From positions 33,589-97,588 of IMG/VR virus record IMGVR_UViG_3300028591_000143: a stretch of DNA of 64,000 bases, one strand, 5' to 3'. How positions within the stretch are numbered: position 1 is the first letter of the stretch; each line of letters starts with the position of its first letter. Origin of the DNA: a virus. Lineage: Duplodnaviria > Caudoviricetes. The translations under genes were made by a program, and so were the position numbers. The notes below the pieces were generated by a model, which saw only the letters and a program-made list of their open reading frames with translations, was not told the origin of the DNA and did not search any database. This document shows, piece by piece, positions 23,040 through 48,132 of the stretch.

Positions 23040-23477
23040 TTACTCTTCGATGGTTTCAATAATACTAGAGAGAGTGTATGCAAATAAGGTTTCAGCAGCC
23101 TCAGAATAAGCTTGTTTCATAGAGATTTTAAACCTGTATGTTCTCTTATCCCTCGTATACTGTAATTCATCTCCCACCTGTAATGAATCATCCGGAGTAT
23201 AAGATTCTATAGTATCCCGGTTTCTATTCCATACATCTCTCATCTCATTCATATTTATTATAAGCGTTGTTGTAAATTGCTCATAATCATTTTCAAGAGT
23301 CGTATCAGAGGAATATGAGCCTCCAAATACATTCCTCCACTTATCATTCTTAGGACGAAGAACAACAAACTCAGTACCCATAAGTTTCATTTGTACTTTT
23401 ATATTCTTCATTCCTATCGAGTAGAATTTATTGGCCTTTTCTAAGTTTTTGGAGGCCATACTTTCTGCATTACTCAT
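23040..23477 (-). CDS. Putative head-closure/neck protein
   Basis: 145 aa; LQVGDELQY…YRFKI pattern; position. Confidence 0.45.
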   Translation of the reverse strand: MSNAESMASKNLEKANKFYSIGMKNIKVQMKLMGTEFVVLRPKNDKWRNVFGGSYSSDTTLENDYEQFTTTLIINMNEMRDVWNRNRDTIESYTPDDSLQVGDELQYTRDKRTYRFKISMKQAYSEAAETLFAYTLSSIIETIEE

Positions 23478-23836
23478 TGTTCATCTATTATTACACAAAA
23501 TTCCTCATTTTCTATAATGAACTTTACTACTTTTATATACTGTGCGTCTGTTAATTTCCCTGAGAGAGATAATATAAATACGTTTCTATCAAAAATAGTA
23601 CGAGTTCTTATAAAAGGGGCAACAGATCTTAAAAAATCTTCTATATCATACTGACTATACTCAAGCTCTATCGGTACATAAATCTTAGTATTTATAGGAT
23701 CAGCTGTTATAGAGATATAATCTCCAGGAACAGAATCTCTTACTTCATAGTCATCAATTCCAGATCGATCTAAGTTATCTGTTATCCTTTCTAGAAAATT
23801 ATTGGAGTACTTTTTTTCTCTCAATACAATCATCAT
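23474..23836 (-). CDS. Leader-bearing putative internal virion protein
   Basis: Starts MMIVLREKKY|S. Confidence 0.7.
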   Translation of the reverse strand: MMIVLREKKYSNNFLERITDNLDRSGIDDYEVRDSVPGDYISITADPINTKIYVPIELEYSQYDIEDFLRSVAPFIRTRTIFDRNVFILSLSGKLTDAQYIKVVKFIIENEEFCVIIDEQ

Positions 23837-25044
23837 CCCTCGTATATATTAAATTTTATCCGAGTTGACATTAATTTTTTTATTATAAGATCAAACTCAG
23901 ATAGTGAATTGAAAGAATAATTGTAAACTACTGATCTCCCTATCTCCGAACGTCTTATTTTGGTTTTTAGAGAAGACCATACTGTTTTATCAATATCCTT
24001 CATTTCTTGACTATCTTTTTCTACAGTAACTATAAATAAGCCTTGATTCATTGACATATTATTCTTGGCTTTTTTATCGGATACTGTATAATTGAACCCC
24101 TCAATATAGTGGAGTCGTTTTAGTGTGTCTTCAAGATAAGAATTACTATAAGATTTCTTGGGAAGTAAAAATCCCTCTCTTGCCAGGTCCTTTAAAGATA
24201 TCTCACGACAAGCTTCATGAATCAATCCTATAAGAATTGAAGGAATAGCAGCATAACCAAATTTAAGCGATCTAGCATTCTTTGCTCCTGTATTTCCTAG
24301 GATTTTTAAAACTTCATATTTATTGAGGGGCTTAACACTAAAAGACTTCTGACTCTCCTCTAATCTCCCCCTAACAAGTGCATTATTGTCAAGAAGATTT
24401 ATTTTTGTTTGCAGAATTTCGGAAAGTTCTATCATAAAATTAGAGATGACTTGATAATTGGTAAATGTGATAGATACAGCCCAACAATTATTATCGGGGT
24501 TTATGGCAACAGAAGTATATCCCATTCCATAATATTTCTTACAATAATAATCAAGGTGCTTATTCAGTTTATCCATTTCTTCATCATTTACCCGATTAGT
24601 ATACATCGTGACTTTATTATCCTGAACTGCAAAACAAATCTTATAGTCACATACATTTCTATCATTAAAAGCAAACCTCTCTTCCATAGTGGCTCTCTTT
24701 TCAAGCTTATCCCCCAAAGGAATACTGGCTGCTTTATAAATACCATACTCTCTTCTTATACCTTTATCTATTTCTTGGTATTTAACTTTGGACATAGGTT
24801 TGTGAAGATAGTTGATAAGAATTTTTAATGCCACACCAGTAAGAGCACCATATTTAGCACCCGTCGCAGCTCCTTGTCCTACGGTAGATTTTTTATCTAT
24901 CTTTCCGACAATGGCTCCTATAATAGCACCTCCGATTGTAGATTTCCCTATTACTTCAAGCGAGGATGGTAGGTTTTCTTCATCTTTGGTTCCTGTAAAA
25001 TGCCCTTCCTGTATTGTAAATTCTTTTTGTCTAAATTTTATCAT
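23833..25044 (-). CDS. Leader-bearing glycine-zipper protein
   Basis: MIKFRQKEF|T; IGGAIIGAIVG…GAATGAKYGALTG. Confidence 0.75.
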   Translation of the reverse strand: MIKFRQKEFTIQEGHFTGTKDEENLPSSLEVIGKSTIGGAIIGAIVGKIDKKSTVGQGAATGAKYGALTGVALKILINYLHKPMSKVKYQEIDKGIRREYGIYKAASIPLGDKLEKRATMEERFAFNDRNVCDYKICFAVQDNKVTMYTNRVNDEEMDKLNKHLDYYCKKYYGMGYTSVAINPDNNCWAVSITFTNYQVISNFMIELSEILQTKINLLDNNALVRGRLEESQKSFSVKPLNKYEVLKILGNTGAKNARSLKFGYAAIPSILIGLIHEACREISLKDLAREGFLLPKKSYSNSYLEDTLKRLHYIEGFNYTVSDKKAKNNMSMNQGLFIVTVEKDSQEMKDIDKTVWSSLKTKIRRSEIGRSVVYNYSFNSLSEFDLIIKKLMSTRIKFNIYEG

Positions 25045-25063
25045 AATGGTTTTTTATTATCTA

Positions 25064-25915
25064 TCAATGTGCTGGTTGGAGTTGTGGTCTTTGTACTACC
25101 CTTCTAAAAGTATTACGAACGTTATTTACTGTCCCATGAATACTATCCCCACCAATAACAGGTCCTAATACATTTTTGGTTCCATTTTTAAACCAATCAT
25201 ATCTTGCTTTTTGTGATGAAGTTAAACCTTTTCCTTGTGCCGCATTTATCAAATCCATCCCAGCATCTAATTCCCATTTTGAAAGAACAGGGGCAGAAGC
25301 GATAATTCCCTTAGTGGCTGGATCTACTGGTAATGCGATCGCTAATGCTGGCTGTCCAACTTTAGCACCAGCCTGAAGTGCCGCGTTTTTTATTACAAGT
25401 CCTGGTCTAGCTACTACTGCTCCACCCGCTTTTCCTACAGTGTTAATAATAGTATCACCAGTTCTATTGTAGAGAGCATCTGCAGTATTATATGCGGTTT
25501 TTTTAGTATTCTCTACTTTCTTATTGATATTTTGGTGTTTTTTGTTAATAACTTTGGCTGAGTTTTCTGGTAAAGATAGACTACGAGCCCTTTTCGCTTT
25601 TTTTGTAATAGAAGGTAGACCAGTAGTTTGTGCAACTCCTTCTAAAACCGATGCTTTTGCTTTATTATATTTAGAGAGTATTCCAGTGGCGGCAGCTTTT
25701 ATAGGATTAGATCCAGCCTCTTTTAATGCGACCTTAGACCTAAGTAATTTTTGTGCTTTATTACTATATAATTTCTGATCCATAACCACACTAAAAGCCT
25801 TAAGCTCAATTACTGGTTTTCGTTTTATGTAGGGGTTTCCGGGATCAGTTGGTAGTCTTTTGAAAACCCACTCCTTTACTTTTGGTAATATTTTCTTTGG
25901 TCTAAATTCCGGCAT
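25064..25915 (-). CDS. Basic Ala/Gly-rich putative internal protein
   Basis: Internal LKAF|S and QKLY|S motifs; Lys-rich. Confidence 0.7.
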   Translation of the reverse strand: MPEFRPKKILPKVKEWVFKRLPTDPGNPYIKRKPVIELKAFSVVMDQKLYSNKAQKLLRSKVALKEAGSNPIKAAATGILSKYNKAKASVLEGVAQTTGLPSITKKAKRARSLSLPENSAKVINKKHQNINKKVENTKKTAYNTADALYNRTGDTIINTVGKAGGAVVARPGLVIKNAALQAGAKVGQPALAIALPVDPATKGIIASAPVLSKWELDAGMDLINAAQGKGLTSSQKARYDWFKNGTKNVLGPVIGGDSIHGTVNNVRNTFRRVVQRPQLQPAH

Positions 25916-25928
25916 AATTTATATACAT

Positions 25929-30369: not shown

Positions 30370-31026
30370 TTAACCAACTTCAACTAGATATACAGGGAAA
30401 CCTGAGTGTATGAACTTTTCTGCTATACCACAGACTAATCCTGCATCCACTGAAGAATCTGAAATTGTCGAAACAACGATATCATTATATTTGTCAGTAG
30501 CTCTGGTAACTACATTTGAACTGTTAGGTATATTCTTTACCACATTAGTAGCTAGTTGGGAAAGTTTTGGATCCTTTACTGTATTTATGAGAATTCTAAG
30601 CTCATCACTGTATTTTGAAATTACAATACAAACTTTAGTTCTCATTCTGTTAGCTTTCTCGGGATCCAATACATAATCAACTCCCTCCCTATATCCTTTA
30701 TGTCTCAGATCTAAGAGGATTTTTTCTAGGAGTCTTCTATCAACCGTTTTTGCTCTATTTATTTTTTTGCTGACTTCTTTTGCTGTTCCAACTAAAGCTC
30801 CTAGTGCCGCTCCAACAATCAATCCAATAGCAATTCCTTTGGTTTGAGACATATCAGGAACCATCTCTTTTACAGCGATCTGTTTATTATTCTCGTTGGT
30901 TACTATTTTTGTTTCTTCGTGTTTTTTCCCGAATCTAGGAATAAAAGTACCAAAAGAACCTCCTATACCTGCTCCAGTTAATGTAGAAGAAAGAATACTA
31001 AAATCTTTTTGTCTAAATTTTATCAT
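30370..31026 (-). CDS. Leader-bearing glycine-zipper protein
   Basis: MIKFRQKDF|S; GIAIGLIVGAALGALVG. Confidence 0.75.
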   Translation of the reverse strand: MIKFRQKDFSILSSTLTGAGIGGSFGTFIPRFGKKHEETKIVTNENNKQIAVKEMVPDMSQTKGIAIGLIVGAALGALVGTAKEVSKKINRAKTVDRRLLEKILLDLRHKGYREGVDYVLDPEKANRMRTKVCIVISKYSDELRILINTVKDPKLSQLATNVVKNIPNSSNVVTRATDKYNDIVVSTISDSSVDAGLVCGIAEKFIHSGFPVYLVEVG

Positions 31027-31416: not shown

Positions 31417-31935
31417 TTAGTAACTATATCCTTCTCGTTGGGTCATATTTTGTCTCCAATCTGCTCTTTCTCTACGTAAAGCTTGACGTTGTGCATAACC
31501 GAGTCGTTTATTGTAGAAATTAACATCTTGCTTCTTTTCTCTATATTTTTTGAGTCCTTTACCTAAACCTATAGTAGTTCCAATAACGACTCCAGCTATT
31601 CCAGTATGTTTAATTCCTCTGAGTAGGGATCTTGTGAGGGCTGGATTAGCAACTCCAGATTTAACTGTAGATGTTATGGCTTTTCTGTTTCCAACTCCCT
31701 TTAATATCCCTCCAGTAACGGCTCCAGCACCAGCACCTATAACAGCTCCCTGAGCAGCAGAAGTTAAAGGACCACTAATTCCAGGACCACGCTTCTTTTC
31801 CTCAGCTAATATATCAGAATCTTTAGCTCTTTTTAGGTTATCTGTATCATCCCATCGTGTGAATTCTCTTTGGGCATACTCATAACCATCATAAAAAGCT
31901 TGATTTATTAGCTCTTCATATATTTTATCATTCAT
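31417..31935 (-). CDS. Long-leader glycine-zipper protein (paralogue of 47244)
   Basis: …AFYDGYEYAQREF|TRWDDTDNLKRAKDSDILAEEKK; GAVIGAGAGAVTGG. Confidence 0.8.
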   Translation of the reverse strand: MNDKIYEELINQAFYDGYEYAQREFTRWDDTDNLKRAKDSDILAEEKKRGPGISGPLTSAAQGAVIGAGAGAVTGGILKGVGNRKAITSTVKSGVANPALTRSLLRGIKHTGIAGVVIGTTIGLGKGLKKYREKKQDVNFYNKRLGYAQRQALRRERADWRQNMTQREGYSY

Positions 31936-31947
31936 GTTTTACTAGTT

Positions 31948-33120
31948 TTATTGTTGCACTGGTTGATTTTGGGACTTTTCGTAGGCAAATGCTTTCTTAT
32001 CTACAGCTTCGAGGGGTTTTCTTACAGCTTTATCTCCCCACTCAAATGGTTTCCATTTAGCAGAGGCCAAACCAATTCCAGCCAAAATTCCGACAGGACC
32101 TGTTTTTCGTACAAACTTAGCGGCTTTATTCATCCAAACACCACGTCCTGGTTTTGTCATTTGATCAGCTAATTTCCCTCTACTTGTTTTTCCCATATAA
32201 AATCCCCAGTTTTCATACCAGGGAGTTTTTTCAGCGGGAGTTGCATACTGTCTTTCCTCAGACTGTGATTGTTTTATCTGATCTTTAAGCTGTTGTCTTT
32301 GGGATAGATAACCAACAGCAGGGAAAGCAGCGCCTAATCCAACAGCCAAAGCAGCTTTTCCAGGAGATCCAGCGGCATCCTTAAATGCTTCCTTACCCAT
32401 AGTCTTAGCTTTACCCCAGGCAGAATTCATAGTAGCTCTGTTAAGTTTTCCTTTTCTAGCTAACATAAGAGTTCCTGCGGTAGCTCCTAATGTTCCAGCA
32501 CCTATCAAAACTCCATTCTTTATCTTCTTGCCTAAACTTTTCTTTTCTTTCTCCGGGGTATCTACTGGCGCTCCAAGTTTCTTACGGTCAGCCTGTATTA
32601 TTTTATCTGTCAAATACCCAGTTCCAGCCATAATAGCACCAGAGGCCATCATATTAGCCATTTTCTGACCTGATCCACGTTCTTTTCCAATATCTACGAG
32701 ATCACGTCCAAAGTCTCTGGCATTATTTACGGTCTTGGATTTCTTTAACTGGGCTACAACATTATCCATCGTCTTACTTTTAGCGACTTTTCTAATACCT
32801 TTAGCGACGGGAGAGAAAACAGAATAGGTTTTTGTTTTTCTTTTTAGTGTTATTGAATAGGTGGTTTGTTGTGGTTGCATTGGGGTAGGAGTAGTAATAT
32901 TTACTGGATTTCCACTTTTAAGAGCTTTCTCTACGTTTCTATTATTAGCAGCAATTTGACGGCTAATATCTCTACTTGCTTGATCTGCCAGCATTTGTTG
33001 TTGCTTAAACTGTTTTGGCATATCAATTGCTCCTTTTACCATAGATACATTAGAGGCTGTAGCTAGTGCTTTCCCTGCAAAACCAAGTATTGAAAATACT
33101 TTCTCTCTAAACTGTATCAT
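31948..33120 (-). CDS. Leader-bearing multi-segment Gly/Ala-rich basic protein
   Basis: MIQFREKVF|S; internal ITLKRKTKTY|S and ERQY|A. Confidence 0.75.
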   Translation of the reverse strand: MIQFREKVFSILGFAGKALATASNVSMVKGAIDMPKQFKQQQMLADQASRDISRQIAANNRNVEKALKSGNPVNITTPTPMQPQQTTYSITLKRKTKTYSVFSPVAKGIRKVAKSKTMDNVVAQLKKSKTVNNARDFGRDLVDIGKERGSGQKMANMMASGAIMAGTGYLTDKIIQADRKKLGAPVDTPEKEKKSLGKKIKNGVLIGAGTLGATAGTLMLARKGKLNRATMNSAWGKAKTMGKEAFKDAAGSPGKAALAVGLGAAFPAVGYLSQRQQLKDQIKQSQSEERQYATPAEKTPWYENWGFYMGKTSRGKLADQMTKPGRGVWMNKAAKFVRKTGPVGILAGIGLASAKWKPFEWGDKAVRKPLEAVDKKAFAYEKSQNQPVQQ

Positions 33121-33122
33121 AT

Positions 33123-33431
33123 CTAAACACTCCTATCTTGTAAACTTTGGCCTGCGTTCTTAAGTCCTCTACCTATACCTCCAGTGATATTCTTACCGGC
33201 GACATAACCAGCACCAAGTCCTACGGCACCAGCCAGAAGTCCACCGCCTAGTCCATATTTAATAGCACTCCCAAGAACTTTCGCCCCAGCTAATCCTCCT
33301 GCAAATCTTCCTATATTAGAGTCTAGAACACTACCTGTCCCCTTCATAACTCCTCCGGCGGTATTTCCAAGAACATTACCAGCTGCCTCAAGAGCACCAA
33401 ATGTTTTTCTTTTTAATCTGTATCTTGCCAT
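33123..33431 (-). CDS. Leader-bearing glycine-zipper protein
   Basis: MARYRLKRKTF|G; GLGGGLLAGAVGLGAG. Confidence 0.75.
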   Translation of the reverse strand: MARYRLKRKTFGALEAAGNVLGNTAGGVMKGTGSVLDSNIGRFAGGLAGAKVLGSAIKYGLGGGLLAGAVGLGAGYVAGKNITGGIGRGLKNAGQSLQDRSV

Positions 33432-33622
33432 TTTCCTAATCTCCCATCGTTTAATTCTGTTCTTAGTTTTCTCATCTCTTTATTTAAATCAGTTCCAGCC
33501 ATTTGTCTTTGGGTATCTAATCTTCCTAGTCTATCAAAATCCTGATCATATTTTCTCCCACGCCTAAATCCTGAAACTCCTGTAGTATTAAGAGTCTTTG
33601 AAAACTTACGTAATATAATCAT
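33413..33622 (-). CDS. Small leader-bearing protein
   Basis: MIILRKF|S; overlaps both neighbours. Confidence 0.65.
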   Translation of the reverse strand: MIILRKFSKTLNTTGVSGFRRGRKYDQDFDRLGRLDTQRQMAGTDLNKEMRKLRTELNDGRLGKWQDTD

Positions 33623-34185
33623 AATTCTAAGAGATATATTTGATATTTTAATCCAAATGGTAGGATATTTATAGCTCTAATGGCATCTTGTATACTACTA
33701 AATTCAAGAACTAAGGAACGACTAGCTTTATCATATTTTAAAGCCTCTCCTAGTAATTCTCTTACAGGAATGGATAGATCAAATGGAAGGTCACTATTAA
33801 AAGATGCTCCATTATTATTACCATCATTTTTCTTTTTCTTGCTATTAGGACTAAACAATCTTTCTTCTTCAGAGAATAGCTTGTTTTTGAAACTAATCTT
33901 GATATTTAGTAGTCGTTTATCGTATACATGTTCGGGGAGTCTAACCTCGTCTGGCATTTTAGCTTTCGCTCCCACCTTAATATACATTCTATATTTATCT
34001 CTATGTCCAAATGCGGTAGAGATAACAAATCTTTCTATTACAACACTATTACCCTTTAGTATAGGTAATAATTGTGACGAGTTTATGATTTTAAATTTAT
34101 TCCGATCAGAGTATTTCATAAGCTCGACATAAAGACTTCTCATAGCATCGTACTCAGAGAATAGTTTTTGTCTAAATTCTATCAT
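33619..34185 (-). CDS. Leader-bearing protein
   Basis: MIEFRQKLF|S; internal NKLF|SEEERLF|S. Confidence 0.75.
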   Translation of the reverse strand: MIEFRQKLFSEYDAMRSLYVELMKYSDRNKFKIINSSQLLPILKGNSVVIERFVISTAFGHRDKYRMYIKVGAKAKMPDEVRLPEHVYDKRLLNIKISFKNKLFSEEERLFSPNSKKKKNDGNNNGASFNSDLPFDLSIPVRELLGEALKYDKASRSLVLEFSSIQDAIRAINILPFGLKYQIYLLEL

Positions 34186-34186
34186 A

Positions 34187-34555
34187 TTATCTTACTATTG
34201 AGAGATTATATTTTACTCCTAGGATTTCTATAATATCTAAAACTATACCTTTCTCTGGTCTTTCTGCAGTTATGACTCTTGTTTTAGTATCTATGTCTGT
34301 AATCCTCATCTGGAATATATCTCGAATTAATTTTTGTGTGTACTTATATAATTCTTTATCCTGAAGCTTTATCTCATATTGACCATCACCATTTCTTATG
34401 AATGATCTGAGTACCATGGCCTTTGAGTTAACTCTTGAAACTTGATCCGCTTGGTCTTCTGAGATAGTATTAAATCGAACACCTTGCTTCTTAAGATATT
34501 CAACTGCTTCCGGCATAAGATCTTGAATAAGTGTTTTCTTTCTAAATGAAACCAT
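34187..34555 (-). CDS. Hypothetical virion protein (degenerate leader)
   Basis: MVSFRKKTL start; 122 aa. Confidence 0.7.
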   Translation of the reverse strand: MVSFRKKTLIQDLMPEAVEYLKKQGVRFNTISEDQADQVSRVNSKAMVLRSFIRNGDGQYEIKLQDKELYKYTQKLIRDIFQMRITDIDTKTRVITAERPEKGIVLDIIEILGVKYNLSIVR

Positions 34556-35680: not shown

Positions 35681-36100
35681 TTACTGTTGCTGTTCCTTCT
35701 TCTTTGCAAAGGTTTTTCTTTTCAATGTATAAGTAGTAGCCATGTCATTCTTTTTTACTTGAGAAAACATTTTACTTCCATCACTTTGTTCTGAAGCTTT
35801 ACTTACAACACCCTTAGCAGCAAGCCCAGTACCAACAGCAAGAGTTCCAGCAAGAGCAAGGGGTTTTCCTACTCCCTTGACTACGTTTCCGAACGCACTT
35901 CCCACAGATTTATTGGTGGCAGGATTTATGTTTACGGTTTTTTGTGTAGCTAAATCAAAGGCCTGATTCGTTTTACCTGTTGCAATATGTCCTAAATTAC
36001 TCCAGTTATTAGCTCCGATGATTCTTCCAAGCGTAGAACCAGCAAATCCTCCTCCAACTCCAAACAGTTTTCTCTTTAATGTGAAAGTTGTTTTACTCAT
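35681..36100 (-). CDS. Leader-bearing Gly/Ala-rich protein
   Basis: MSKTTFTLKRKLF|G; second leader-like MATTYTLKRKTF|A at C-terminus. Confidence 0.75.
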   Translation of the reverse strand: MSKTTFTLKRKLFGVGGGFAGSTLGRIIGANNWSNLGHIATGKTNQAFDLATQKTVNINPATNKSVGSAFGNVVKGVGKPLALAGTLAVGTGLAAKGVVSKASEQSDGSKMFSQVKKNDMATTYTLKRKTFAKKKEQQQ

Positions 36101-36182: not shown

Positions 36183-37703
36183 TTAGAGTCCAACGGTGAA
36201 CTCAACTTTCTGAACGAGCTCTGGAGCAAGATACTTAGTACCTTCCTGATAATAAATACCAGAAGCCATTTGAGTCGGATTATTATAGTTACCAATAGTT
36301 GGGGTGTCGGTTAGAGGCATATAAATACCACGAGCAAGAGGAGCCATCTGACCATCAGCGGTCTTATGGATAGCATAGAAAACACCCTTCTGATATTTTT
36401 TATTGTCTTCAGTAGTTTCTATAGGCTCAACAATATCATCACTACGAAGAACGGGAATACCATCATACCAACCAAGTAGATCGGAGATATAGGTCATCTT
36501 CTCATTTCTCTTAAATTTACCGATAATTCCACCTTTCTGGAACTGTGAGGCAGCTTGAGTGCCAGCAACATAAGCAGTAGTGGTAACACCCTTGACAGCT
36601 CTCTTAGCAAGAGCAGTTTCAACGTTAATCAGATAAGCGTCGAATAGGTCGACTCTTGAACGATAGTCAGTAAAGGTAACATTATTAGCAGCACCAGTAG
36701 ATGTGGTATCGAAACCGATTCCTCTAGCTGAGAGGTCTAAGTCATCCATTGTGTTGCCATTATAACCCTCAACAAGAGTAGAAACGAGCTTATAGTTAAT
36801 CATCTTGGTGTAAAGCTCACGAAGTTTGGTGAACAGGAATGAAGCCATGTCAGCACCAGTAGCTTTCTTCATGGCACCAAGAGCAGCAATATTATATTCA
36901 GCGACTAGCATATCAGGAACAGTCGAGAGACCAAGCTGCTGCATTTTAGCTAGGAAGCGCTTGTCATTGGCGTGGGCATTAGTTGAGCCAGTGGTATTGC
37001 AAGGAGTACCAGTGACATCCTCTTTACCGACAATTGTGATAGAAGCTTTTGCATGAGAAGTAGCGTTATCAGCTGGGACACTGGCTAGAGTAAAATCAAC
37101 TTTACCATTCAGATAGTTAAGACTACCAGCGACCATAACACCGGCTTTGGCCATGAAGTTACCCTGACCGTCATCAACGAGCTCATAATTACCTTTACCA
37201 CCAGCAACGGGGTCAACAACTTTCACGCGAATAGTACCAGGGATAAGCTTACGACCAACAAGAGTACTATAATTAGTGCCATTAACGGTAACCTCTAGCT
37301 GGAAATTACCCATGCTATTAATATCCTTGTAGTTATCAGGACCCAGGTTAGGAATAACATTTCTCATGTCGGAGACACCAAGAACATCAAACCAGTAGAA
37401 AAGACCATTGGGTTGATCAAAGTCACGCTCGATAGACATAAAGCCAGCAAAAGAGCTAACATAAGAAGCAACTGAAGCATTAAAATACTGAGTGCTCAGA
37501 AGAGGAGTCTCGGCATAACCAGAGAAAGTCTTCTGTAATAGATTAGCACCATTAGTACCAAAAATATCAGCCTTCATTTCATCATTTCTCGAGAACATCT
37601 TAGCATATTCACGAGCACGAATTCTAGCGTCATCAAGAGACACTGAGCTATTTTTCAGAGCGGTCATCATCTCATCGCTCTGCATGTGTTCTAAATAATT
37701 CAT
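36183..37703 (-). CDS. Major capsid protein (HK97 fold, T4 gp23-like)
   Basis: 506 aa; DQPNGLFYWFD and IYMPL…NPTQMASGIYY motifs; follows protease and scaffold; strong terminator. Confidence 0.85.
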   Translation of the reverse strand: MNYLEHMQSDEMMTALKNSSVSLDDARIRAREYAKMFSRNDEMKADIFGTNGANLLQKTFSGYAETPLLSTQYFNASVASYVSSFAGFMSIERDFDQPNGLFYWFDVLGVSDMRNVIPNLGPDNYKDINSMGNFQLEVTVNGTNYSTLVGRKLIPGTIRVKVVDPVAGGKGNYELVDDGQGNFMAKAGVMVAGSLNYLNGKVDFTLASVPADNATSHAKASITIVGKEDVTGTPCNTTGSTNAHANDKRFLAKMQQLGLSTVPDMLVAEYNIAALGAMKKATGADMASFLFTKLRELYTKMINYKLVSTLVEGYNGNTMDDLDLSARGIGFDTTSTGAANNVTFTDYRSRVDLFDAYLINVETALAKRAVKGVTTTAYVAGTQAASQFQKGGIIGKFKRNEKMTYISDLLGWYDGIPVLRSDDIVEPIETTEDNKKYQKGVFYAIHKTADGQMAPLARGIYMPLTDTPTIGNYNNPTQMASGIYYQEGTKYLAPELVQKVEFTVGL

Positions 37704-37727
37704 ATATTTCCTTCTTATTTTTTGGGT

Positions 37728-39953
37728 TTATTTTCCAATCTCCTGACCTAACCAAGAGACTAGTGTATCATTAGTGTTATTTATCGATTCTTCAACTTCA
37801 TTGGCACTAAACTGAGCCTCCTGAAGTTCTGCCTGTTCGTCTTCAGCCGGAGTATTCTTAGCCTCTATAATAGCATTTACAGAGGTATTCGTAGCATCAC
37901 TAATTGCCTGTACCGCAGCAAGGGCGGCATCTTCAATGGCCTCTACACTAGGAGCAGCCTCTTCTCCCTGCTGGAGGGGAACAAGGTTTCCATTTTCATC
38001 ATAGACGGCCGGGACAACCTCTGGCTCTGGGGCGGCAGCGGCATTAACCTCAGCGAAGAACTTATCTAAGGGATTAGCAGAGAACTTCTTCTCTTCATCT
38101 TCATCCCCTCCGATCAAATCAGCAGCAGTTTCCTCACTGATAGGAGCTAAGTCAATATCATCTTCGGACACAACGGCTTTAGTATATTCTCCGTTCTCTT
38201 TATCCTTGATGACAGCGGTTTCATTGTCGATGGGAGTAATAGTCTCACCCTCAGTCTCAACAACCTCACCTTCCTCAACGGCCTTCTCAATATCAGCCTC
38301 ATCAGCCTCCTCAGAGAATAAACGACACATATAGTCAGTCATATCCTCATTCTCACTGAAGAATTTAGTCTCCTCAGCATTTGAATAAGTCTTCTCTTCA
38401 GTCAGATCAGCAGCTTCTTCTTCGCTTATCGGTTTAAGGTCAATATCATCATCAGTCATTGTGGCCTTAGTATATTCACCGTTCTCTTTATCTTCAATAA
38501 CAGCAGTCTCATCATCAACCGGAGTAATAATTTCAGAATCAGTTTCAACTTGCTCATTATTTTCAATGGCTTTCTCAATATCAGCTTCATCGGCTTCCTC
38601 AGAGAAAAGTCTGCACATATAATCAGTCATATCCTCATTCTCACTGAAGAATTTAGTCTCTTCAGCATTTGAATAAGTCTTCTCTCCGGTTAATTCATCA
38701 GCCTCTTCCTCACTGATAGGATTGCAGTTCATACTATCACCATCAATAACAACCTTAGTTAATTCACCATTATCTTTATCCTCGACAATAGCAGTATAAT
38801 CGTCGACGGGAGTTATAATTTCAGTGTCAGTCTCAACCTCATCACCACCCTCGATAGCATTCTCAATGGCGGACTGAGATGCGTCGATATCATTACAAGC
38901 CTCACTAAAGAGACGAGTCATAAAAGCGGTGTTATCAATATTATATCTAGTTACAAAGACATCATGCTCAGAGAATTCGACCTGTTCGGGCTCTTCAATC
39001 TCCTCAGTGTCTTCAACTCCAACACTTTCGAGGAGAGAAATAGCATAATCTCTAGCTTCGGTTTCATCTTCAAAAACCTGAACACCATCAATACCAATCT
39101 CCTGAAGTCTATCCACAAGTTCTTGAGCACTTTCTTCGCTATACTCAGAAGCATCGACTATCTGGTGATTAAACGCATCTATTCCAACAACATGAAGGGG
39201 CATAAATTCCTCTTCATTAGCGGTCTCTTCACCTTCCTCGCTAAAATTCTTTGAGTCTAATTCCTGAACATCCATTTCTTCATCATCCATTGTAACCTTG
39301 GCTTGATCACCACTATTCTCGTCAGTCACAATAACAGTATTGGGTTCTTCTGTTTTCTCGATTTTTAAGTCTCCAACCTTTGCAGTTTCTTGACTTTCAA
39401 TGACTTCAGAAAATAGACGCTCACAATAAGCCTGATCACTGAATATTCTCAGAACCACAGTATTATCGGTAGAAACACTGAATTCTTTCTCTTCCTCATC
39501 CTCTTCAGATCCGCACTCACAAGGATTTTGTCCACACTCTGGGCAAACATCACCCTCTGCGTTCTCTTCAACAGTAGGAGCAGGAGTTTCATCAGGATTA
39601 TGATCTTCAACTTTCTCATCAGGAGCTCCAACTTGATCACCAGGAGTCACTCCATCATCTTCCATGTGCAGATAATTCTCCGGTTGGTCTGTAGGGATTT
39701 CGACACCCGCAGGATACAGATCATAATTACCATCTTCAGCTTTCTCAGCAATAGTCCGCTCACCGTTTTCATTATCGGTGATTTCAACCTTGCCTTCACC
39801 TAAGTCAACATAAGTTAACTCATCCGTGGTAACTGAACCTTTTTGTTTTGCTTCTTCAATATCTCTAGCAACCTGTGAAGTTAATTCCTCATCACCTTCA
39901 GCAGTAGCACTAAAGATTCTAGTCATAAATCTTGTATTTTCTGGATTTTTCAT
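37728..39953 (-). CDS. Acidic scaffold/prohead core protein with 96-aa repeats
   Basis: Very Glu/Asp-rich; immediately upstream of MCP; at least 12 [KR]x[FY]S motifs. Confidence 0.75.
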   Translation of the reverse strand: MKNPENTRFMTRIFSATAEGDEELTSQVARDIEEAKQKGSVTTDELTYVDLGEGKVEITDNENGERTIAEKAEDGNYDLYPAGVEIPTDQPENYLHMEDDGVTPGDQVGAPDEKVEDHNPDETPAPTVEENAEGDVCPECGQNPCECGSEEDEEEKEFSVSTDNTVVLRIFSDQAYCERLFSEVIESQETAKVGDLKIEKTEEPNTVIVTDENSGDQAKVTMDDEEMDVQELDSKNFSEEGEETANEEEFMPLHVVGIDAFNHQIVDASEYSEESAQELVDRLQEIGIDGVQVFEDETEARDYAISLLESVGVEDTEEIEEPEQVEFSEHDVFVTRYNIDNTAFMTRLFSEACNDIDASQSAIENAIEGGDEVETDTEIITPVDDYTAIVEDKDNGELTKVVIDGDSMNCNPISEEEADELTGEKTYSNAEETKFFSENEDMTDYMCRLFSEEADEADIEKAIENNEQVETDSEIITPVDDETAVIEDKENGEYTKATMTDDDIDLKPISEEEAADLTEEKTYSNAEETKFFSENEDMTDYMCRLFSEEADEADIEKAVEEGEVVETEGETITPIDNETAVIKDKENGEYTKAVVSEDDIDLAPISEETAADLIGGDEDEEKKFSANPLDKFFAEVNAAAAPEPEVVPAVYDENGNLVPLQQGEEAAPSVEAIEDAALAAVQAISDATNTSVNAIIEAKNTPAEDEQAELQEAQFSANEVEESINNTNDTLVSWLGQEIGK
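38110..38920 (-). repeat. ~288-bp tandem repeat (about 3 units) in scaffold gene
   Basis: ATCCTCATTCTCACTGAAGAATTTAGTC at 38343 and 38631. Confidence 0.9.
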
Positions 39954-39971
39954 ACTAATTATTCTATCTAT

Positions 39972-40739
39972 TTATTTTATTTCTATATTATTATCCTTTT
40001 CTCCGATTATACCAAGAGATTTTAATTTCTCTATAATATTCTCGGGAGCATCTGGATAACGCTCTTCTATAATACCTTCAAATTCTGGCTTTGACATCGT
40101 AGTGCCTCCAAATTCGGCCCCAAGATCACCAAGAATACCAGAATCTTCCAGCCATCCCTCACGATCACCTTCTTTTTTTACTCCATGAACTTTTTTAAGA
40201 ATGGCAATACACTTAGGGGTCATGTTTAGATTATCAATAAATCCACCAAAATTACCATGACTCTGCATAACTTCGGGGACTAATTCATACTCTTTGGTTA
40301 CTGAAACAACTAACTTTGAAAATAAACGTGATTCTAAGAAAGCTGTACTGGAAATTTTAATCCCGCCATCTTCAGTAGCTTTTGAAAATCCACGCTCTTC
40401 TAGATCAGCTCTTTCTATTTCACTAAAGTTTTTCTCGTATAGATCCTTACTAATCTCTCTACCGGAGAATTCCTTTAGTTTTAATTCAAGGGGATCAGAA
40501 GTTGTAGAAAACTCCTTCTGAAAATCCTCTTCAAAAATTGAGCGTCTTTGTCTAGTTTGAACATCGGCTCCACAAACTTTACAATAACCCATGTCCAACT
40601 CTTCCTGGCTCAATTCATGTCCACAGTCACTACATAGGACTCGAGAAACTTCAACCTTAGGTTCCTCGCTACTAAATAATTTGCGTCTTGGGGTAGTAGG
40701 AGGAACATCACTAAATAATTTACGTCTTTCTTTCTTCAT
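39972..40739 (-). CDS. Prohead core-like protein with Zn ribbon
   Basis: RRKLF|S twice, CSDC…CKVC, further KEF|S motifs; lies between protease and scaffold. Confidence 0.65.
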   Translation of the reverse strand: MKKERRKLFSDVPPTTPRRKLFSSEEPKVEVSRVLCSDCGHELSQEELDMGYCKVCGADVQTRQRRSIFEEDFQKEFSTTSDPLELKLKEFSGREISKDLYEKNFSEIERADLEERGFSKATEDGGIKISSTAFLESRLFSKLVVSVTKEYELVPEVMQSHGNFGGFIDNLNMTPKCIAILKKVHGVKKEGDREGWLEDSGILGDLGAEFGGTTMSKPEFEGIIEERYPDAPENIIEKLKSLGIIGEKDNNIEIK

Positions 40740-40740
40740 A

Positions 40741-42036
40741 TTACTTTTCCTCCTTTAATTCTTCCTCTTCACTGGGAATATTATCTACATTCTTAAATAT
40801 CTCGTCAAGAACAGCTTCAATAAATTTATTATATGCTGTGGACAACTTTTGATATCTCATTTTAGATATAAATCCTTGTTTTCTTGATTCTATTCCAGCC
40901 ATTCTATAGGCCATTTGAAGATCTTGACAAGCGATTCGTAATGATTTTGAAATTGAACTAGCACCTAATAGAGTATTAATTTGCTTGTTCTTAGAAATAA
41001 CATCATCCGAAATACGATTAAGAATGTATAGAACTTCTGAAGAAACCATTGATTTAAGAATTGTTTCATCTTCAGGTTTTAAATTAGGACCCATGCTTTT
41101 TAATACTTGTTTGTAGCTTATTATCATTCTACGAAACTGGAGACGCACACCAAGTTTCCTCTCTCTAAGCTGATCTCTAATTCCAGCCACAGAAAATTCC
41201 TTCTGCTCAGGCTGTTCTTTTTTCTCTTCTTCAGTAAATTCTTTCTCTACCAGACTACTCTCATCCTCTTCTGCTTTAATGTCGCTATAAAATGAAAATT
41301 CCTTTATCTTAAGCTTAGTAAACTGACCATCAATCTTTGAAGATTTTGGTAGATCAGATATATCAACACCAGCTTCTGTGGGATTCGAAAAAGTTTTTAC
41401 TTTTATATTAATTTCGTCTGCTGTAGTTGAGAAAGTTCTGTCTTTAAATTCAGCTTTCTCTTTATCATCATATATAATTTCAGTAATATGAGATTCAGGA
41501 CCAAAACTCGGAGAAAGAGTCCAATCTAATCCCTTAATAAGTTTTATTTTCTTGGCTACGTCGGCTCCGCCATTATTTCTATCAGAACCACTCCACCAAG
41601 CCACCACAACGAGACTATTTGCTAAGAATACACCGGATTTTAATAATCCCCGCAATCTTTTTATATTCTCAGCAGCTCTAGAATCAAAATCTTCGGGATC
41701 TAAAATGTGTACTTCTGCACTTAGGAAATTCCCTCGTTCAGTCTCTTCTATATAAAATTTCTTTACATAGTGGGTTGGAGTCGAAATTCCGTCGGCTACA
41801 AGAAGTAATTGATCTGAATCCCCAATCTTCTTTTTTATTATAGATGCATCACCTGCAGATTCAGGCATACCATCTACTCCCCTACTTTTGTGTGTTAAAC
41901 AACCTAGGGTTGATCTTGTAGCTATTGATCTTTTATAATCTTCGCTCTCAAGATACTCCCTTACAGCAAGTTCGGGGATTATTGAATTATCTGCTGCACG
42001 CTGACCTAAAGGGCAACATCTAACTTTTACATCCAT
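40741..42036 (-). CDS. Prohead maturation protease (gp21/HK97-like)
   Basis: LGCLTH, PTHYV, ANSLVV, IKGLDWTLSPSF motifs; followed by a linker with five [KR]xF[ST] sites. Confidence 0.75.
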   Translation of the reverse strand: MDVKVRCCPLGQRAADNSIIPELAVREYLESEDYKRSIATRSTLGCLTHKSRGVDGMPESAGDASIIKKKIGDSDQLLLVADGISTPTHYVKKFYIEETERGNFLSAEVHILDPEDFDSRAAENIKRLRGLLKSGVFLANSLVVVAWWSGSDRNNGGADVAKKIKLIKGLDWTLSPSFGPESHITEIIYDDKEKAEFKDRTFSTTADEINIKVKTFSNPTEAGVDISDLPKSSKIDGQFTKLKIKEFSFYSDIKAEEDESSLVEKEFTEEEKKEQPEQKEFSVAGIRDQLRERKLGVRLQFRRMIISYKQVLKSMGPNLKPEDETILKSMVSSEVLYILNRISDDVISKNKQINTLLGASSISKSLRIACQDLQMAYRMAGIESRKQGFISKMRYQKLSTAYNKFIEAVLDEIFKNVDNIPSEEEELKEEK

Positions 42037-43790: not shown

Positions 43791-43796
43791 TATATT

Positions 43797-44586: not shown

Positions 44587-44603
44587 AGCCTTTGTTTTTT
44601 AAT

Positions 44604-44878: not shown

Positions 44879-44911
44879 AGTTATTAGAAAGGAGATTTTT
44901 TTTATATTAGT

Positions 44912-45346
44912 TTAAAATATTCCAACCTTCTTTGCATTCTTTAGATATTCATAGTGACTTTTTAAATCACCATGTCTATCCTTTTTTATCTGTTTTAGTT
45001 GGAGAGGGTCGGTTTTTGCTCCAACAACTTCTCTTCTAAATACACTTTTACCTACATTTGGTCTACTTTCAAAAGCCTTAGTAAAACCACTTGGCATCAT
45101 TGAATTAATACCCTTTGGATTTCCTACCTTCGTGAAAAATTGTTTGGCTTGATTTGGATTAACATAAGCAAATTCTCTCTGGGCATATTCGTATCCTTCA
45201 CAAAATGCACGTTCCAAGAGTTCATCCAAGTCTTCATTTCCTGTACTATAAAGCTTCTCATCATAGTACTCATCATAATCACTGTACAATTTAGTTATTT
45301 TCATTATCTCTTTACTTTCACATACAGGGATTATTGTTATTTTCAC
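44912..45346 (-). CDS. Long-leader protein (start probably MKITKLYS at 45304)
   Basis: EKLY|STGNEDLDELLERAFCEGYEYAQREF|A. Confidence 0.75.
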   Translation of the reverse strand: MKITIIPVCESKEIMKITKLYSDYDEYYDEKLYSTGNEDLDELLERAFCEGYEYAQREFAYVNPNQAKQFFTKVGNPKGINSMMPSGFTKAFESRPNVGKSVFRREVVGAKTDPLQLKQIKKDRHGDLKSHYEYLKNAKKVGIF

Positions 45347-45403
45347 CTATTACCCCCCCCCCTGTATGCTATTTTTAACAAAGGGAGAGATAATATATAT
45401 ATC

Positions 45404-45934
45404 TTAATAAGCGATAGTTATTACATAAGAATCAATCCACTTAAACGCGTCTTGTAGTGAATCTGTTTCATATTTTATTTCAAAGTTTTTCTTCCCAAAG
45501 AGTCTATTTACTCCTCTACTAATTAATGCAAGGGGAGCAGTTTCGTGAGTTACTTTAAATACTCTATCAGTAGAATTAACAAACCAACTTATAGTAAAAT
45601 ACTCAGATCCTCCAGTGATTGCAATAACTGCTCTTTCTTCTTCGGCGTGTCTTATTGATGTAGGCTCTTTGCCTGTTCTAAGTTGTTTTAGTATATTTTC
45701 TTTTCCACATAGATTAACACTAGTTCCCCTTTGGGTATCATAACTAGTGTAAATTTTATCTTTTACACTAAACTTATTACATATCGTAAAATATCGTAAT
45801 AAATCCTCTGGTAGCTCTATTTCGTAATTTCCTTTATCTGGTCTTGTTGTATTTAAATTTTTACATAACCAATCTGCCAGATCCTTGTTGTGTCTGGAAA
45901 ATAAACCAAACTCTTTTTGCCTTAATATTCTCAT
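45404..45934 (-). CDS. Leader-bearing protein
   Basis: MRILRQKEF|G. Confidence 0.75.
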   Translation of the reverse strand: MRILRQKEFGLFSRHNKDLADWLCKNLNTTRPDKGNYEIELPEDLLRYFTICNKFSVKDKIYTSYDTQRGTSVNLCGKENILKQLRTGKEPTSIRHAEEERAVIAITGGSEYFTISWFVNSTDRVFKVTHETAPLALISRGVNRLFGKKNFEIKYETDSLQDAFKWIDSYVITIAY

Positions 45935-45956
45935 ACTCTTCTCTTCTCTTTTGTTT

Positions 45957-46005
45957 TAGATCTAGGAATCCACATTAAAGGGTAGACTTAAAGTCATTCC
46001 TAGAT
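45957..46005 (-). ncRNA. Putative tRNA-like three-way-junction element (type B)
   Basis: P1 UCUAGGAAU/AUUCCUAGA, GAC/GUC hairpin, UACCC-UUUAAU-GUGG, U-CUA. Confidence 0.55.
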
Positions 46006-46015
46006 ATTACTTTAT

Positions 46016-46633
46016 TTAGTGTTTGATACGTCTAGTTGCATATTTCTTGGCATACTCTTCCTCAGACATTTCGCCTTTTGCAACCTTAGTAGTATCTCTA
46101 TCTTTCTCTATCTCTTGATCATGTAAACCACTGGGATATTTCTCAGCCTTATCACTTCTCTTTTTATATAGGTGATGATTCAGGGCAGTTAAACCAGCTC
46201 CAACTGCGGCTCCACCAGCGGCACCAATAGCAGCACCTTTTCCAGTTTTGCCAAGTGAAGATCCAGCAAGAGCACCAACACCAGCACCAACAGCGGTCTC
46301 GGCCGGAACAAGAACCTTAGCAACTCTTTTAGTATTCTCTTTATTAGCCTTTTTTCTAACCTCAGGATCCTCAGAGCTCATATCTTCTACATTCTTATAT
46401 TTCTCCGGGTTCTTTCTATAAGACTTTCTCTGAGCTAGAATAGTATCTCTATCATATTTACTAATACCAAGCTCTTTCATCTTTCTATTGGACTCTCTAC
46501 GCTCTTTTCTTTCATCCTTACCAAACTCTCTCTGAGCATATTCATAACCATCACAAAAAGCTCTTTCAAGAAGTTCGTCGAGCTCATCATTACCAGTGCT
46601 ATATAATCTAGTACTTAGTCTTTCGATTTTCAT
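46016..46633 (-). CDS. Long-leader glycine-zipper protein
   Basis: RLY|STGNDELDELLERAFCDGYEYAQREF|G; VGAGVGALAG…GAAIGAAGGAAVGAG. Confidence 0.8.
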   Translation of the reverse strand: MKIERLSTRLYSTGNDELDELLERAFCDGYEYAQREFGKDERKERRESNRKMKELGISKYDRDTILAQRKSYRKNPEKYKNVEDMSSEDPEVRKKANKENTKRVAKVLVPAETAVGAGVGALAGSSLGKTGKGAAIGAAGGAAVGAGLTALNHHLYKKRSDKAEKYPSGLHDQEIEKDRDTTKVAKGEMSEEEYAKKYATRRIKH

Positions 46634-47220
46634 AACTTTCTACGGATAACTTTCTTTGCACCCTGTTTAATAACTTTTGCACCAGCAGCAAAGTCCTCTT
46701 TTGCTTTCTCAGTCATTCCCTTAATACCCTTGGCAGCTTCTCTTCTTGCCTCTTTTGTTAAAGGAATACCTTCATCAACGAGTTTCTTTCCTTTTTCCAT
46801 TGTCTTTTCGTACTCGGATTTCTTGGCGTAAGAATTATTAATTTTATAACGCTTTCCACTCTTATTACTAGTTTCAACTTTAGTGGAATTGATAAGTTTC
46901 TTGCCCTCTTCTTTTAAGTTCTGACCTTTCTTATCGATAGCATTTTCACCAAGTTTAGCAACACCGGCGAGAGTACCGGCACCAACAACAGCAGTACCTC
47001 CTACACCTGCGGCAACCTTAGCCCCAGTATGTTTCTTCTTCTTAGGTTCTTCAGCTTCTTCCTCTTCAGCAAATTCTCTCTGTGCATATTCATAACCCTC
47101 ACAGAAAGCACGCTCTAGGAGTTCATCTAGTTCGTCATTACCAGTACTATAGAGTCTCTCCTCCTCTTCCTGGACATTCTCGCTGTAAAATCTTTCAGCA
47201 AATTCTCTTCCGTTAATCAT
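46630..47220 (-). CDS. Long-leader Gly/Ala-rich basic protein
   Basis: RLY|STGNDELDELLERAFCEGYEYAQREF|A; VAAGVGGTAVVGAGTLAG. Confidence 0.8.
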   Translation of the reverse strand: MINGREFAERFYSENVQEEEERLYSTGNDELDELLERAFCEGYEYAQREFAEEEEAEEPKKKKHTGAKVAAGVGGTAVVGAGTLAGVAKLGENAIDKKGQNLKEEGKKLINSTKVETSNKSGKRYKINNSYAKKSEYEKTMEKGKKLVDEGIPLTKEARREAAKGIKGMTEKAKEDFAAGAKVIKQGAKKVIRRKL

Positions 47221-47243
47221 AATTCTCTTATTGTTTATTTTTT

Positions 47244-47696
47244 TTAGGAAGTATATTCTTCTCTCCCGTTAGTCATATTATTAGCCCAATCTTTCTTTTC
47301 ACGTCTTAGGGCCTGTTTCTTTGCATATCGTAGACGTTTATTATAGTGGTTTACTTCTTCAACCTCTTTCTGACGTTTATTAGTAGCACCTAGAGCAAGA
47401 GTACCAGCACCGATAGCAGCAGCAATAGCAACATTTTTTTTACCACCGCGTTTCACAAGTTTCTCGGCAATTCTTTTGGCTTCTCCTTTTCCTTTTTTTC
47501 TTATGATCTTACTGGCTATGTGTCCAGCAGCACCAGCACCAGCTCCTGCAATTGCTCCCGCACCAGCAGCACTCACAATCTTTCCGACTCCCGGTTTTTT
47601 CTTTTCTTCTTCAGCCAGGATATCCGAGTCTTTAGCTCTTTTTAGGTTGTCAGTATCATCCCACTTTGTAAAATTCTTAGTTCTTAGGATTAACAT
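47244..47696 (-). CDS. Short-leader glycine-zipper protein (paralogue of 31417)
   Basis: MLILRTKNF|TKWDDTDNLKRAKDSDILAEE. Confidence 0.8.
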   Translation of the reverse strand: MLILRTKNFTKWDDTDNLKRAKDSDILAEEEKKKPGVGKIVSAAGAGAIAGAGAGAAGHIASKIIRKKGKGEAKRIAEKLVKRGGKKNVAIAAAIGAGTLALGATNKRQKEVEEVNHYNKRLRYAKKQALRREKKDWANNMTNGREEYTS

Positions 47697-47808
47697 GATT
47701 TTAATGGGTTATACGTATTATTCTCGGAGTCTAATTCTTGTTTTGAATTTTCTACCCCTTCAGTAAATGTTTTTTCTTTAATATTTTCTTCGTCGTACAT
47801 AATAAAAG

Positions 47809-48132
47809 CTATTTCGGCATAGCTACAGGATCTACACCTTTTGATCTAGTTTTATATAATCCAACGTTTTTAGGAGTGTCTTCAAGGTTCTGCATTTTTT
47901 GGGTCTGAATTCTTGTTTTATCTTCATGCATATCCTTTTGCATCTCCATTTTCTGTAGTTGTTGGATTTGTTTCATTCTAGCCTTTGCCGCATCTGCCTC
48001 TATTTTTTGTTTTGTTCGTTGGTTAATCATGATCTGTCTTTGCATTCTCATATTTTCCAACTGTATATCTCTAGGGGTTAATTGCTGCGGTTCTTCTACG
48101 GCTGCAAATCTTTTCTGTCGTATTATTTTCAT
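47809..48132 (-). CDS. Leader-bearing coiled-coil protein
   Basis: MKIIRQKRF|A; Gln/Met-rich. Confidence 0.7.
   Translation of the reverse strand: MKIIRQKRFAAVEEPQQLTPRDIQLENMRMQRQIMINQRTKQKIEADAAKARMKQIQQLQKMEMQKDMHEDKTRIQTQKMQNLEDTPKNVGLYKTRSKGVDPVAMPK

Follow-up and report, generated by a model that had tools for sequence, protein, structure and literature searches.

Why do so many otherwise unrelated small proteins of one phage begin alike? The question arises from a 64,000-nucleotide stretch of viral DNA, referred to here as the window (bases 33589-97588 of the 97.6-kb IMG/VR record IMGVR_UViG_3300028591_000143; Caudoviricetes), in which 12 open reading frames (ORFs) start with a leader, 7 to 13 residues long, that follows the pattern M-I-x-F-R-Q-K-x-[FY]-[SGTA]. 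These short leaders end in the same motif, [KR]-x-[FY]-[SGAT], that marks the neighbouring scaffold, capsid protein and protease. A preliminary description of the region, drawn from the sequence without database searches, had taken the motif for a code for cleavage after Phe or Tyr and the leader for a mark of proteins packaged into the head. As judged from its distribution and conservation, the motif most likely tells a new, T4-like family of head proteases where to cut and, by analogy with phage T4, probably serves as a loading signal too. The reading that we favour, and consider likely, is a T4-like head maturation with a new aromatic specificity at P1, the residue before the cut, and a short tag on mostly basic cargo. 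On the same reading, the window contains the head-morphogenesis module of an uncultured ~400-kb jumbo myophage, with the T4-like order portal, protease, small core protein, acidic scaffold and capsid protein.

Distribution of the motif

The following genes make up the head core and its presumed portal; here and throughout, an arrow marks the predicted scissile bond, aa stands for amino acids and pI for isoelectric point.

48129..49847, minus strand: putative portal, 572 aa, N-terminal site MKRENENLVQKIF↓G
40741..42036, minus strand: predicted prohead protease, 431 aa, gp21/assemblin fold
39972..40739, minus strand: core protein, 255 aa, 7 motif sites in residues 1-141
37728..39953, minus strand: acidic scaffold-like protein, 741 aa, pI 4.05, 29% Asp+Glu, 15 motif sites
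36183..37703, minus strand: major capsid protein, 506 aa, predicted sites Y33↓A34, F37↓S38 and F60↓S61

All the leader N-termini quoted in the preliminary description were found at their minus-strand ORFs (23474-48132), as were its four long leaders ending in YEYAQREF (31417, 44912, 46016 and 46630). Its motif counts held as well. The scaffold-like protein, for which at least 12 copies had been claimed, contains 15, the core protein seven, the protease ORF five (in residues 200-282) and the capsid protein three in its first 61 residues. Compared with shuffles that preserve the composition of each protein, the head core (36183-42036) holds 30 copies against 3.8 expected, and the wider region 23040-49847 holds 77 against 22.3. 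The contrast between head and tail or non-virion proteins, which had been put forward as a test of the code, is clear: neither the tail genes (54 copies, 45 expected) nor the plus-strand genes (4 copies, 9 expected) show an excess. A stricter seven-residue form, hydrophobic-[KRM]-x-[KR]-x-[FY]-[SGAT], occurs 24 times in the whole 97.6-kb record, where 3.6 are expected; 23 of these copies lie within the region 23040-49847 and 10 are N-terminal.

The motif also emerges when it is not specified beforehand. When all tripeptide patterns in the head substrates are scanned without bias, K.FS (15 observed, 0.28 expected) and R.FS (9 observed, 0.15 expected) come out on top, and in the predicted substrates [KR].[FY][SGAT] is found 30 times against 1.6 expected. 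In the same substrates the T4-type pattern [LIV].E is not enriched at the sequence level (28 observed, 30.4 expected), and the phiKZ-type pattern [SAG].E reaches 44 against 34.1 in an acidic scaffold, with no positional pattern.

Might the resemblance nevertheless be an artefact without function, produced by composition, by recent paralogy or by wrongly assigned start codons? Some leader proteins are indeed paralogues, and the AT-rich genome favours codons for Lys, Phe and Ile. Yet the excess in the head core was measured against composition-keeping shuffles, and the motif keeps its positions in 120 homologues each of the capsid protein and the putative portal, and is likewise conserved in relatives of the protease with as little as about 25% identity. 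Furthermore, every leader begins at the first start codon of its ORF, and the leaders use varied codons, with Ser encoded by AGT and TCN and Arg by AGA, AGG, CGT and CGA; selection therefore acts on the peptide. Statistics and conservation contradict the artefact, to which we assign next to no probability.

In total, about 21 proteins carry a predicted site: 12 with short leaders, four with long leaders, the putative portal, the 255-aa core protein, the scaffold, the capsid protein and the protease. The marked set of about 19 proteins proposed at the outset comes to slightly more in our count. A literature search for the leaders, and for phage maturation proteases specific for Phe, yielded no description of this motif or system.

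A protease family with a gp21-type fold

If the motif is a cutting signal, which enzyme reads it? In the product of 40741-42036, a disordered linker (aa 196-282) connects a protease domain (aa 1-195) to a bundle of helices at the C-terminus (aa 283-431). Its AlphaFold2 (AF2) model has a mean predicted local distance difference test (pLDDT) score of 83.7, mostly above 90 in residues 1-195. Foldseek returned T4 gp21 (5jbl) as the best match, with a probability of 1.00, and VIA-align superposed the two with a Z score of 11.6 and a root-mean-square deviation of 2.8 over 132 residues; herpesvirus assemblins came next, with Z scores of 7-9. Residues H49, R52, D75 and S141 are invariant in an alignment of 73 family members. 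The modelled enzyme thus has the gp21/assemblin fold and, with His49/Ser141 as the putative catalytic pair, is predicted to be a Ser/His prohead protease.

This resemblance does not extend to sequence. The protein has no Pfam match at E ≤ 0.01 and no PHROG match, Peptidase_S77 (PF03420) finds nothing in the six frames of the record at E ≤ 1, and a profile built from the 73 protease sequences matched no PDB chain. It thus belongs to a new sequence family with a prohead-protease fold, which is in no database and was previously undescribed.

The link between the family and the motif is found in the linker. Here the window's protease has five sites, with cuts predicted after F202, F216, F247, F267 and F281. 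A library clustered at 50% identity contains 90 representatives of the family, and in the 49 long ones the motif occurs 229 times where 55.9 copies are expected; 180 of these fall in residues 156-300, right after the protease domain, at a density of 25 per 1000 aa against 3.3 elsewhere. All 49 long, diverged relatives have three to five copies just after the protease domain, including members down to ~25% identity, and across the family P3 is Lys or Arg in 61% of the aromatic-small dipeptides of the linker, as against about 15% outside it. Such family-wide clustering in the protease linker is the pattern expected of self-processing. Five distant protease loci (L011, L012, L046, L047 and L048) also have N-terminal leaders ending in the motif, together with a 976-aa scaffold-like protein with 14 copies and copies at the protease's own N-terminus. 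A complex prediction for protease residues 1-195 with the first 60 residues of the leader protein 33619-34185 scored 0.01 and is neutral as to binding.

Two side observations concern this gene family. In many members (P0003, P0009, P0010, P0018, P0020, P0025, P0073; L047 4209-4712) the motif stands at the protease's own residues 6-9 (M....[KR]LF↓S), where it would define a 9-residue propeptide; T4 gp21 likewise cuts nine residues off itself. In the window's protease, RCCP takes the place of the motif. At loci L014-L016, a 221-aa gene occupies the place of the 446-aa gene of L013, just upstream of the same 288-aa gene, and the protease gene there may be split or interrupted, a candidate case identified only by gene position.

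Predicted substrates of the head core

The scaffold-like protein has 15 sites where 0.56 are expected, and cuts at these sites would yield pieces of 9 to 144 residues; its gene lies between those of the protease and the capsid protein, like gene 22 in T4. The core protein has seven sites where 0.67 are expected and begins with MKKERRKLF↓S, its C-terminal 115 residues are site-free, and its relatives retain a MERRKLFS start.

For the capsid protein, look-alikes in the ESM Atlas are Gp23-bearing clusters (score 0.98, template-modelling score 0.74), and tblastn gave a weak match to a phage capsid protein. K35, F37, K58, F60 and S61 do not vary among 120 homologues, 111 of which have Ser and nine Ala at position 38, while the residues between the two conserved sites vary; in 117 of the 120 there is no motif past residue 90. 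The mature capsid protein probably starts at S61.

The putative portal shows a similar pattern, its N-terminal [KR]xF↓G at residues 11-14 being kept in 120 of 120 homologues. Atlas feature matches to portal clusters, including Portal_T4, together with its size and position, make 48129-49847 only a lead for the portal; the AF2 model, built with 28 close homologues, has a pLDDT of 46 and is too poor for a fold search, and the assignment therefore stays a lead. The Pfam models of T4 gp20 and gp23 matched neither the predicted portal nor the predicted capsid protein.

Leader proteins

The ORFs with short leaders are as follows.

23474..23836, minus strand: 120 aa, MMIVLREKKY↓S
23833..25044, minus strand: 403 aa, MIKFRQKEF↓T; mature pI 9.2; its orthologue in the complete relative G001 keeps the leader
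30370..31026, minus strand: 218 aa, MIKFRQKDF↓S; mature part basic, with a glycine-zipper-like hydrophobic segment
31013..31402, minus strand: 129 aa, MIIFRQKNF↓G
31948..33120, minus strand: 390 aa, MIQFREKVF↓S, plus four internal motif copies
33123..33431, minus strand: 102 aa, MARYRLKRKTF↓G
33413..33622, minus strand: 69 aa, shortened leader MIILRKF↓S
33619..34185, minus strand: 188 aa, MIEFRQKLF↓S; two more sites at aa 102-112
35681..36100, minus strand: 139 aa, MSKTTFTLKRKLF↓G; a second site, TLKRKTF↓A, near the C-terminus
45404..45934, minus strand: 176 aa, MRILRQKEF↓G
47244..47696, minus strand: 150 aa, MLILRTKNF↓T; paralogue of 31417-31935 with a different leader
47809..48132, minus strand: 107 aa, MKIIRQKRF↓A

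Four further ORFs have the longer leader, and one is of uncertain membership.

31417..31935, minus strand: 172 aa, 25-residue leader ending YEYAQREF↓T
44912..45346, minus strand: 144 aa, KLY↓S twice, then a helical module ending YEYAQREF↓A
46016..46633, minus strand: 205 aa, RLY↓S, then a module ending YEYAQREF↓G; mature part basic, glycine-zipper-like
46630..47220, minus strand: 196 aa, REF↓A, RFY↓S, RLY↓S, then a module ending YEYAQREF↓A
34187..34555, minus strand: degenerate leader MVSFRKKTLIQ, lacking the aromatic-small pair; MIEFRQRKF↓L in one orthologue (L007)

Orthologous genes in relatives retain the leaders. In six orthologues of 33619-34185, 49-89% identical overall, leader residues M1, I2, F4, R5, Q6 and K7 are invariant, and the leader of 30370-31026, a protein with Gly-zipper Pfam matches below cut-off, is conserved in L001-L006. 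That the leader is modular can be seen from the paralogues 31417-31935 and 47244-47696: their mature parts are 54% identical, the homology starts directly after the motif, and the one has a 25-residue and the other a 9-residue leader, joined exactly at that point. Leaders are also restricted by location. In the complete 400-kb relative (G001), all 15 strict leader ORFs lie within the virion module at 119-204 kb, which comprises 98 of the 506 ORFs (hypergeometric P = 8e-12).

Over the leaders, P3 is Lys in 94%, P5 Arg in 90%, P6 Phe, Leu or Ile in 84%, and P4 Gln and P8 Ile in 65% each. Internal sites retain the core motif only, without this P4-P8 information, and the additional conservation in the leaders fits a second role such as targeting. 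Predicted mature cargo has a pI of 9.2-10.5 in 14 of 16 cases, compared with 4.05 for the scaffold. The internal proteins of T4 are likewise basic.

Two other observations were made on these genes. Ten consecutive G precede the GTG start of 44912-45346 at a short distance (~45347-45371, minus strand) and may represent either a sequencing artefact or a site of slippage or phase variation. Outside the window, at 26773-27333 of the same record (minus strand; L037 274-834), a 186-aa ORF starts with MIIFREKLF↓R, a canonical leader with Arg at P1′, the residue after the cut; it has no Pfam match at E ≤ 0.01.

Proposed maturation pathway

We strongly infer that the enzyme encoded by 40741-42036 makes the cuts; the predicted scissile bond is that between the aromatic and the small residue. 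We place it there because different leader types join the mature protein at this point, because the motif ends at P1 in T4 and phiKZ, and because Ser at P1′ is preferred by the next-best fold matches, the herpesvirus assemblins, which cut Ala↓Ser. Ser at P1′ is preferred by SPN3US gp245 as well (PMC10052503), which is a further ground for this placement.

The pathway that we propose is modelled on that of T4 (PMC9958956), in that protease, scaffold and cargo would assemble together within the prohead. The protease would recognize (hydrophobic)-[KR]-x-[KR]-x-[FY], and the residue following its cut would be a small one, in most cases Ser. By cutting its own linker it would detach itself from the helical anchor at its C-terminus. 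It would chop up the 741-aa scaffold, along with the first half of the 255-aa core protein, into short peptides; the capsid protein would lose ~60 residues and be trimmed at Ser61, and the putative portal would lose 13 and be trimmed at Gly14. From ~16 small, mostly basic proteins, the 9-residue leader (M-I-x-F-R-Q-K-x-F) or the ~25-residue helical YEYAQREF leader would be clipped. Like the capsid targeting sequence of T4, the leader probably also brings these proteins into the core formed by the scaffold; this targeting role and the packaging of the cargo, for which we argue by analogy, are less firm than the cleavage.

Several points weigh against this pathway. No protease sequence model, of S77 or otherwise, matches the enzyme, its linker sites are of low confidence in the full-length AF2 model (pLDDT <50), and there is no cultured relative, a tblastn search of the protease against 50,697 phage records having returned no match. 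Several leader ORFs (23474-25044) sit among tail genes, so not all need be head cargo, and the extra leader conservation could reflect common descent of a shuffled module instead of targeting. Finally, a relative's 376-kb genome was binned with a Bacilli metagenome-assembled genome (MAG) that has both Prp, a host cysteine protease, and a long ribosomal protein L27.

This last point raises the question of whether a host enzyme makes the cuts. In Firmicutes, Prp removes a 9-residue N-terminal extension of L27 (PMC5744158, PMC9405229), and it also cuts the capsid and scaffold proteins of phage 80alpha between Phe and Ala (PMC5744158). The L27 motif, MLxx(D/N)LQ(F/L)F↓A(S/H)KK (PMC9405229), is like the leader in its ~9-residue length, Phe at P1 and small P1′. 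The leaders at the distant locus L011 are strikingly L27-like: three tandem small ORFs that follow the distant protease homologue (2654-4097, plus strand) start M..(K)LNL[KR]SF↓SAK, close to the Firmicute MLxxNLQFF↓ASKK, which hints at a shared origin or recognition with Prp substrates. The MAG in question, RGIG8901 ('Bacilli bacterium' in GenBank, water deer omasum; G002), has a near-complete genome of the phage group on its 376-kb contig C18 (L038/L041), and its bacterial contig C25 (L039/L040) has the order rplU-prp-rpmA-obg with an L27 that starts MLFKLNLQLF↓ASKKG. The presence of the phage genome there is either a binning error or a hint of the host.

On this alternative, a Prp-type host protease would make the cuts and the phage protease would have other substrates or none of this kind. 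The residues around the site speak against this: in the linkers, Gln, the L27 residue at P3, is not among the eight commonest where Lys or Arg makes up 61%, and the leaders have Lys, Gln and Arg at P3, P4 and P5 where L27 has Gln, Leu and Asn or Asp (PMC9405229). The motif tracks the phage protease family and is clustered in its linkers, and digestion of a scaffold in a closed prohead requires a co-assembled enzyme. The Prp family (PF04327) was not found in the record or in the complete 400.9-kb relative (G001), where L27 was likewise sought and not found. The MAG link is a single binning event, with the capsid gene present in only one of 301 genomes of that order. Host cleavage is in our view improbable. 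A Bacteroidota host, considered on account of few Shine-Dalgarno sites (21 of 101 genes), was dropped, as the Bacilli MAG is also poor in such sites and the Bacteroidota promoter pattern is not enriched.

What the leader does is a separate matter from who removes it. The motif could be a real signal for the phage protease or scaffold without the leader being a capsid address: the leader could then be only a removable cap, for example one holding membrane-active glycine-zipper proteins inactive up to assembly, or the motif could be a docking peptide left uncut at some copies, and cargo would enter the head or another part of the virion otherwise. The argument for targeting consists of the T4 analogy and the extra P4-P8 conservation only, the tail-gene region holds several leader ORFs, and hydrophobic, glycine-rich stretches, found in many of the mature parts, might be toxic ahead of assembly. 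For the scaffold of 80alpha, moreover, the N-terminal peptide is required for assembly although its cleavage is dispensable (PMC5744158). Against this, a gp21-type protease is expected to be active only in proheads (T4, PMC9958956), so its substrates must already be inside; the fixed 9-residue length, with invariant Arg at P5 and Gln at P4, exceeds what internal sites need; and the leaders are confined to the virion module. We hold this alternative to be unlikely, if less so than cleavage by the host.

A more far-reaching version of the targeting role is possible, though we regard it as doubtful. The 9-residue leader would be a self-sufficient, portable address tag, read by the new gp21-fold proteases or their scaffold. 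With it the phages would load their heads with at least 20 basic, membrane-active proteins destined for ejection into the host. In evolution it would have a common origin with the L27 extension of Firmicutes, the substrate of the 'phage-related' protease Prp, as is hinted at by the L27-like leaders of distant members of the family.

The phage and its neighbouring genes

The record from which the window is taken has a CheckV completeness of 26%. Its relatives, with capsid proteins 69-81% identical, include a complete 400,901-bp genome (G001) with terminal repeats, and clusters of capsid-protein homologues number in the hundreds, on contigs of up to ~424 kb. The source is therefore a jumbo phage of ~400 kb, and its group, with genomes of ~380 to 424 kb, is common in metagenomes and uncultured.

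The virion genes of the window, all on the minus strand, span 526-49847. Pfam and PHROGs scans of 30 proteins from the region gave nothing useful except a weak sheath match for 27877-30345, an HNH endonuclease, DUF723 and the sub-cut-off glycine zipper; for the sheath protein, too, tblastn against the 50,697 phage records found no cultured relative. The 534-aa product of 42110-43714 (minus strand), directly upstream of the protease gene, is an HNH homing endonuclease (phrog_559, E 9.5e-80) and not a portal. DUF723 (PF05265, E 1.7e-9) was found in a 374-aa ORF beside the sheath gene (26676-27800, minus strand) and, weakly, in 42110-43714; the former may be a second mobile endonuclease within the virion operon.

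Two sets of similar genes lie elsewhere. Three ORFs of ~700 aa with similar N-termini (..IPINVPKEIEYISEW..) and no family match, at 14261-16354 (minus strand) and 50576-52666 (plus strand) of the window and at 31555-33684 (minus strand) of the record, are scattered over the tail operon and the opposite-strand module. Between large tail genes, 12819-14011 (minus strand) holds three tandem paralogous ORFs of 132-134 aa (MRDKTKFSKKAE.. plus a variant).

Comparison with known systems

How does the system relate to those already described? In T4, internal proteins have a ~10-residue leader, a 65-residue piece of gp23 is removed, core proteins are degraded to peptides and gp21 cleaves itself (PMC9958956). 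The window shares with it the fold of gp21 (MEROPS S77; Z 11.6) and the gene order protease, scaffold, capsid; a leader of ~10 residues, ending at a protease site, on small basic proteins (IPI-III and Alt in T4); an acidic scaffold full of sites, like the T4 core proteins gp22, gp67 and gp68; and, as predictions here, the removal of ~60 capsid residues and the self-processing of the protease. It differs from T4 in having no detectable sequence similarity to the gp21, gp20 and gp23 Pfam models, in its predicted site, [KR]-x-[FY]↓[SGAT] as opposed to (L/I)-x-E↓, in the 150-residue C-terminal helical domain of its protease behind a multi-site linker, and in its ~16 leader proteins, of which T4 has ~4, with a second, longer leader type.

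Jumbo phages offer a second comparison. phiKZ, 201phi2-1 and SPN3US likewise combine a gp21-type protease (gp175/gp245) with ~9 to 19 processed head proteins, multiple sites in the propeptides of inner-body or ejection proteins and a preference for Ser at P1′ (PMC10052503). Their enzymes, however, cut after Glu in S/A/G-x-E, a motif that is not enriched here; their propeptides are long, whereas the leaders here are mostly of nine residues; and there is no sequence relationship. The cargo set, which the preliminary description had called unusually large, is of ordinary size in this company: the number of head proteins that are cleaved is 19 in phiKZ and also in 201phi2-1 (PMC10052503), close to our 19 to 21. 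The system was also said to be analogous to those of T4 and phiKZ and yet distinct from them. The gp21/assemblin fold and the lack of enrichment of Glu-type motifs are in line with this, but head cutting after an aromatic residue has a precedent in 80alpha (PMC5744158).

In 80alpha, a short N-terminal peptide common to unrelated virion proteins is cut after Phe and before a small residue (PMC5744158), much as predicted here. Its motif, LNLQ(F/L)F↓A, is found on few phage proteins, namely the 80alpha capsid and scaffold proteins, the phage 80 capsid protein and a phi13 tail protein (PMC5744158), and the enzyme is a host-encoded Cys protease. Here, in contrast, a phage Ser protease family co-varies with a motif that has a basic P3 and that also fills the scaffold. 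Herpesvirus assemblins, finally, resemble the window's protease in fold class (Z 7-9), in the joining of the protease to a scaffold-like C-terminal part and in self-release (predicted here), with M and R sites in their scaffold; they differ in having Ala at P1 and no cargo leader system, and they belong to eukaryotic viruses.

Should the code prove right, sequence alone would reveal which head proteins are processed in an entire family of uncultured jumbo phages, and a third, aromatic-P1 specificity, in a protease family that is in no database, would join those of the gp21-type prohead proteases. The 9-residue tag and its matching protease would then also make a compact tool for loading proteins into capsids. 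As such, the system extends the scheme known from T4 and phiKZ and does not overturn it.

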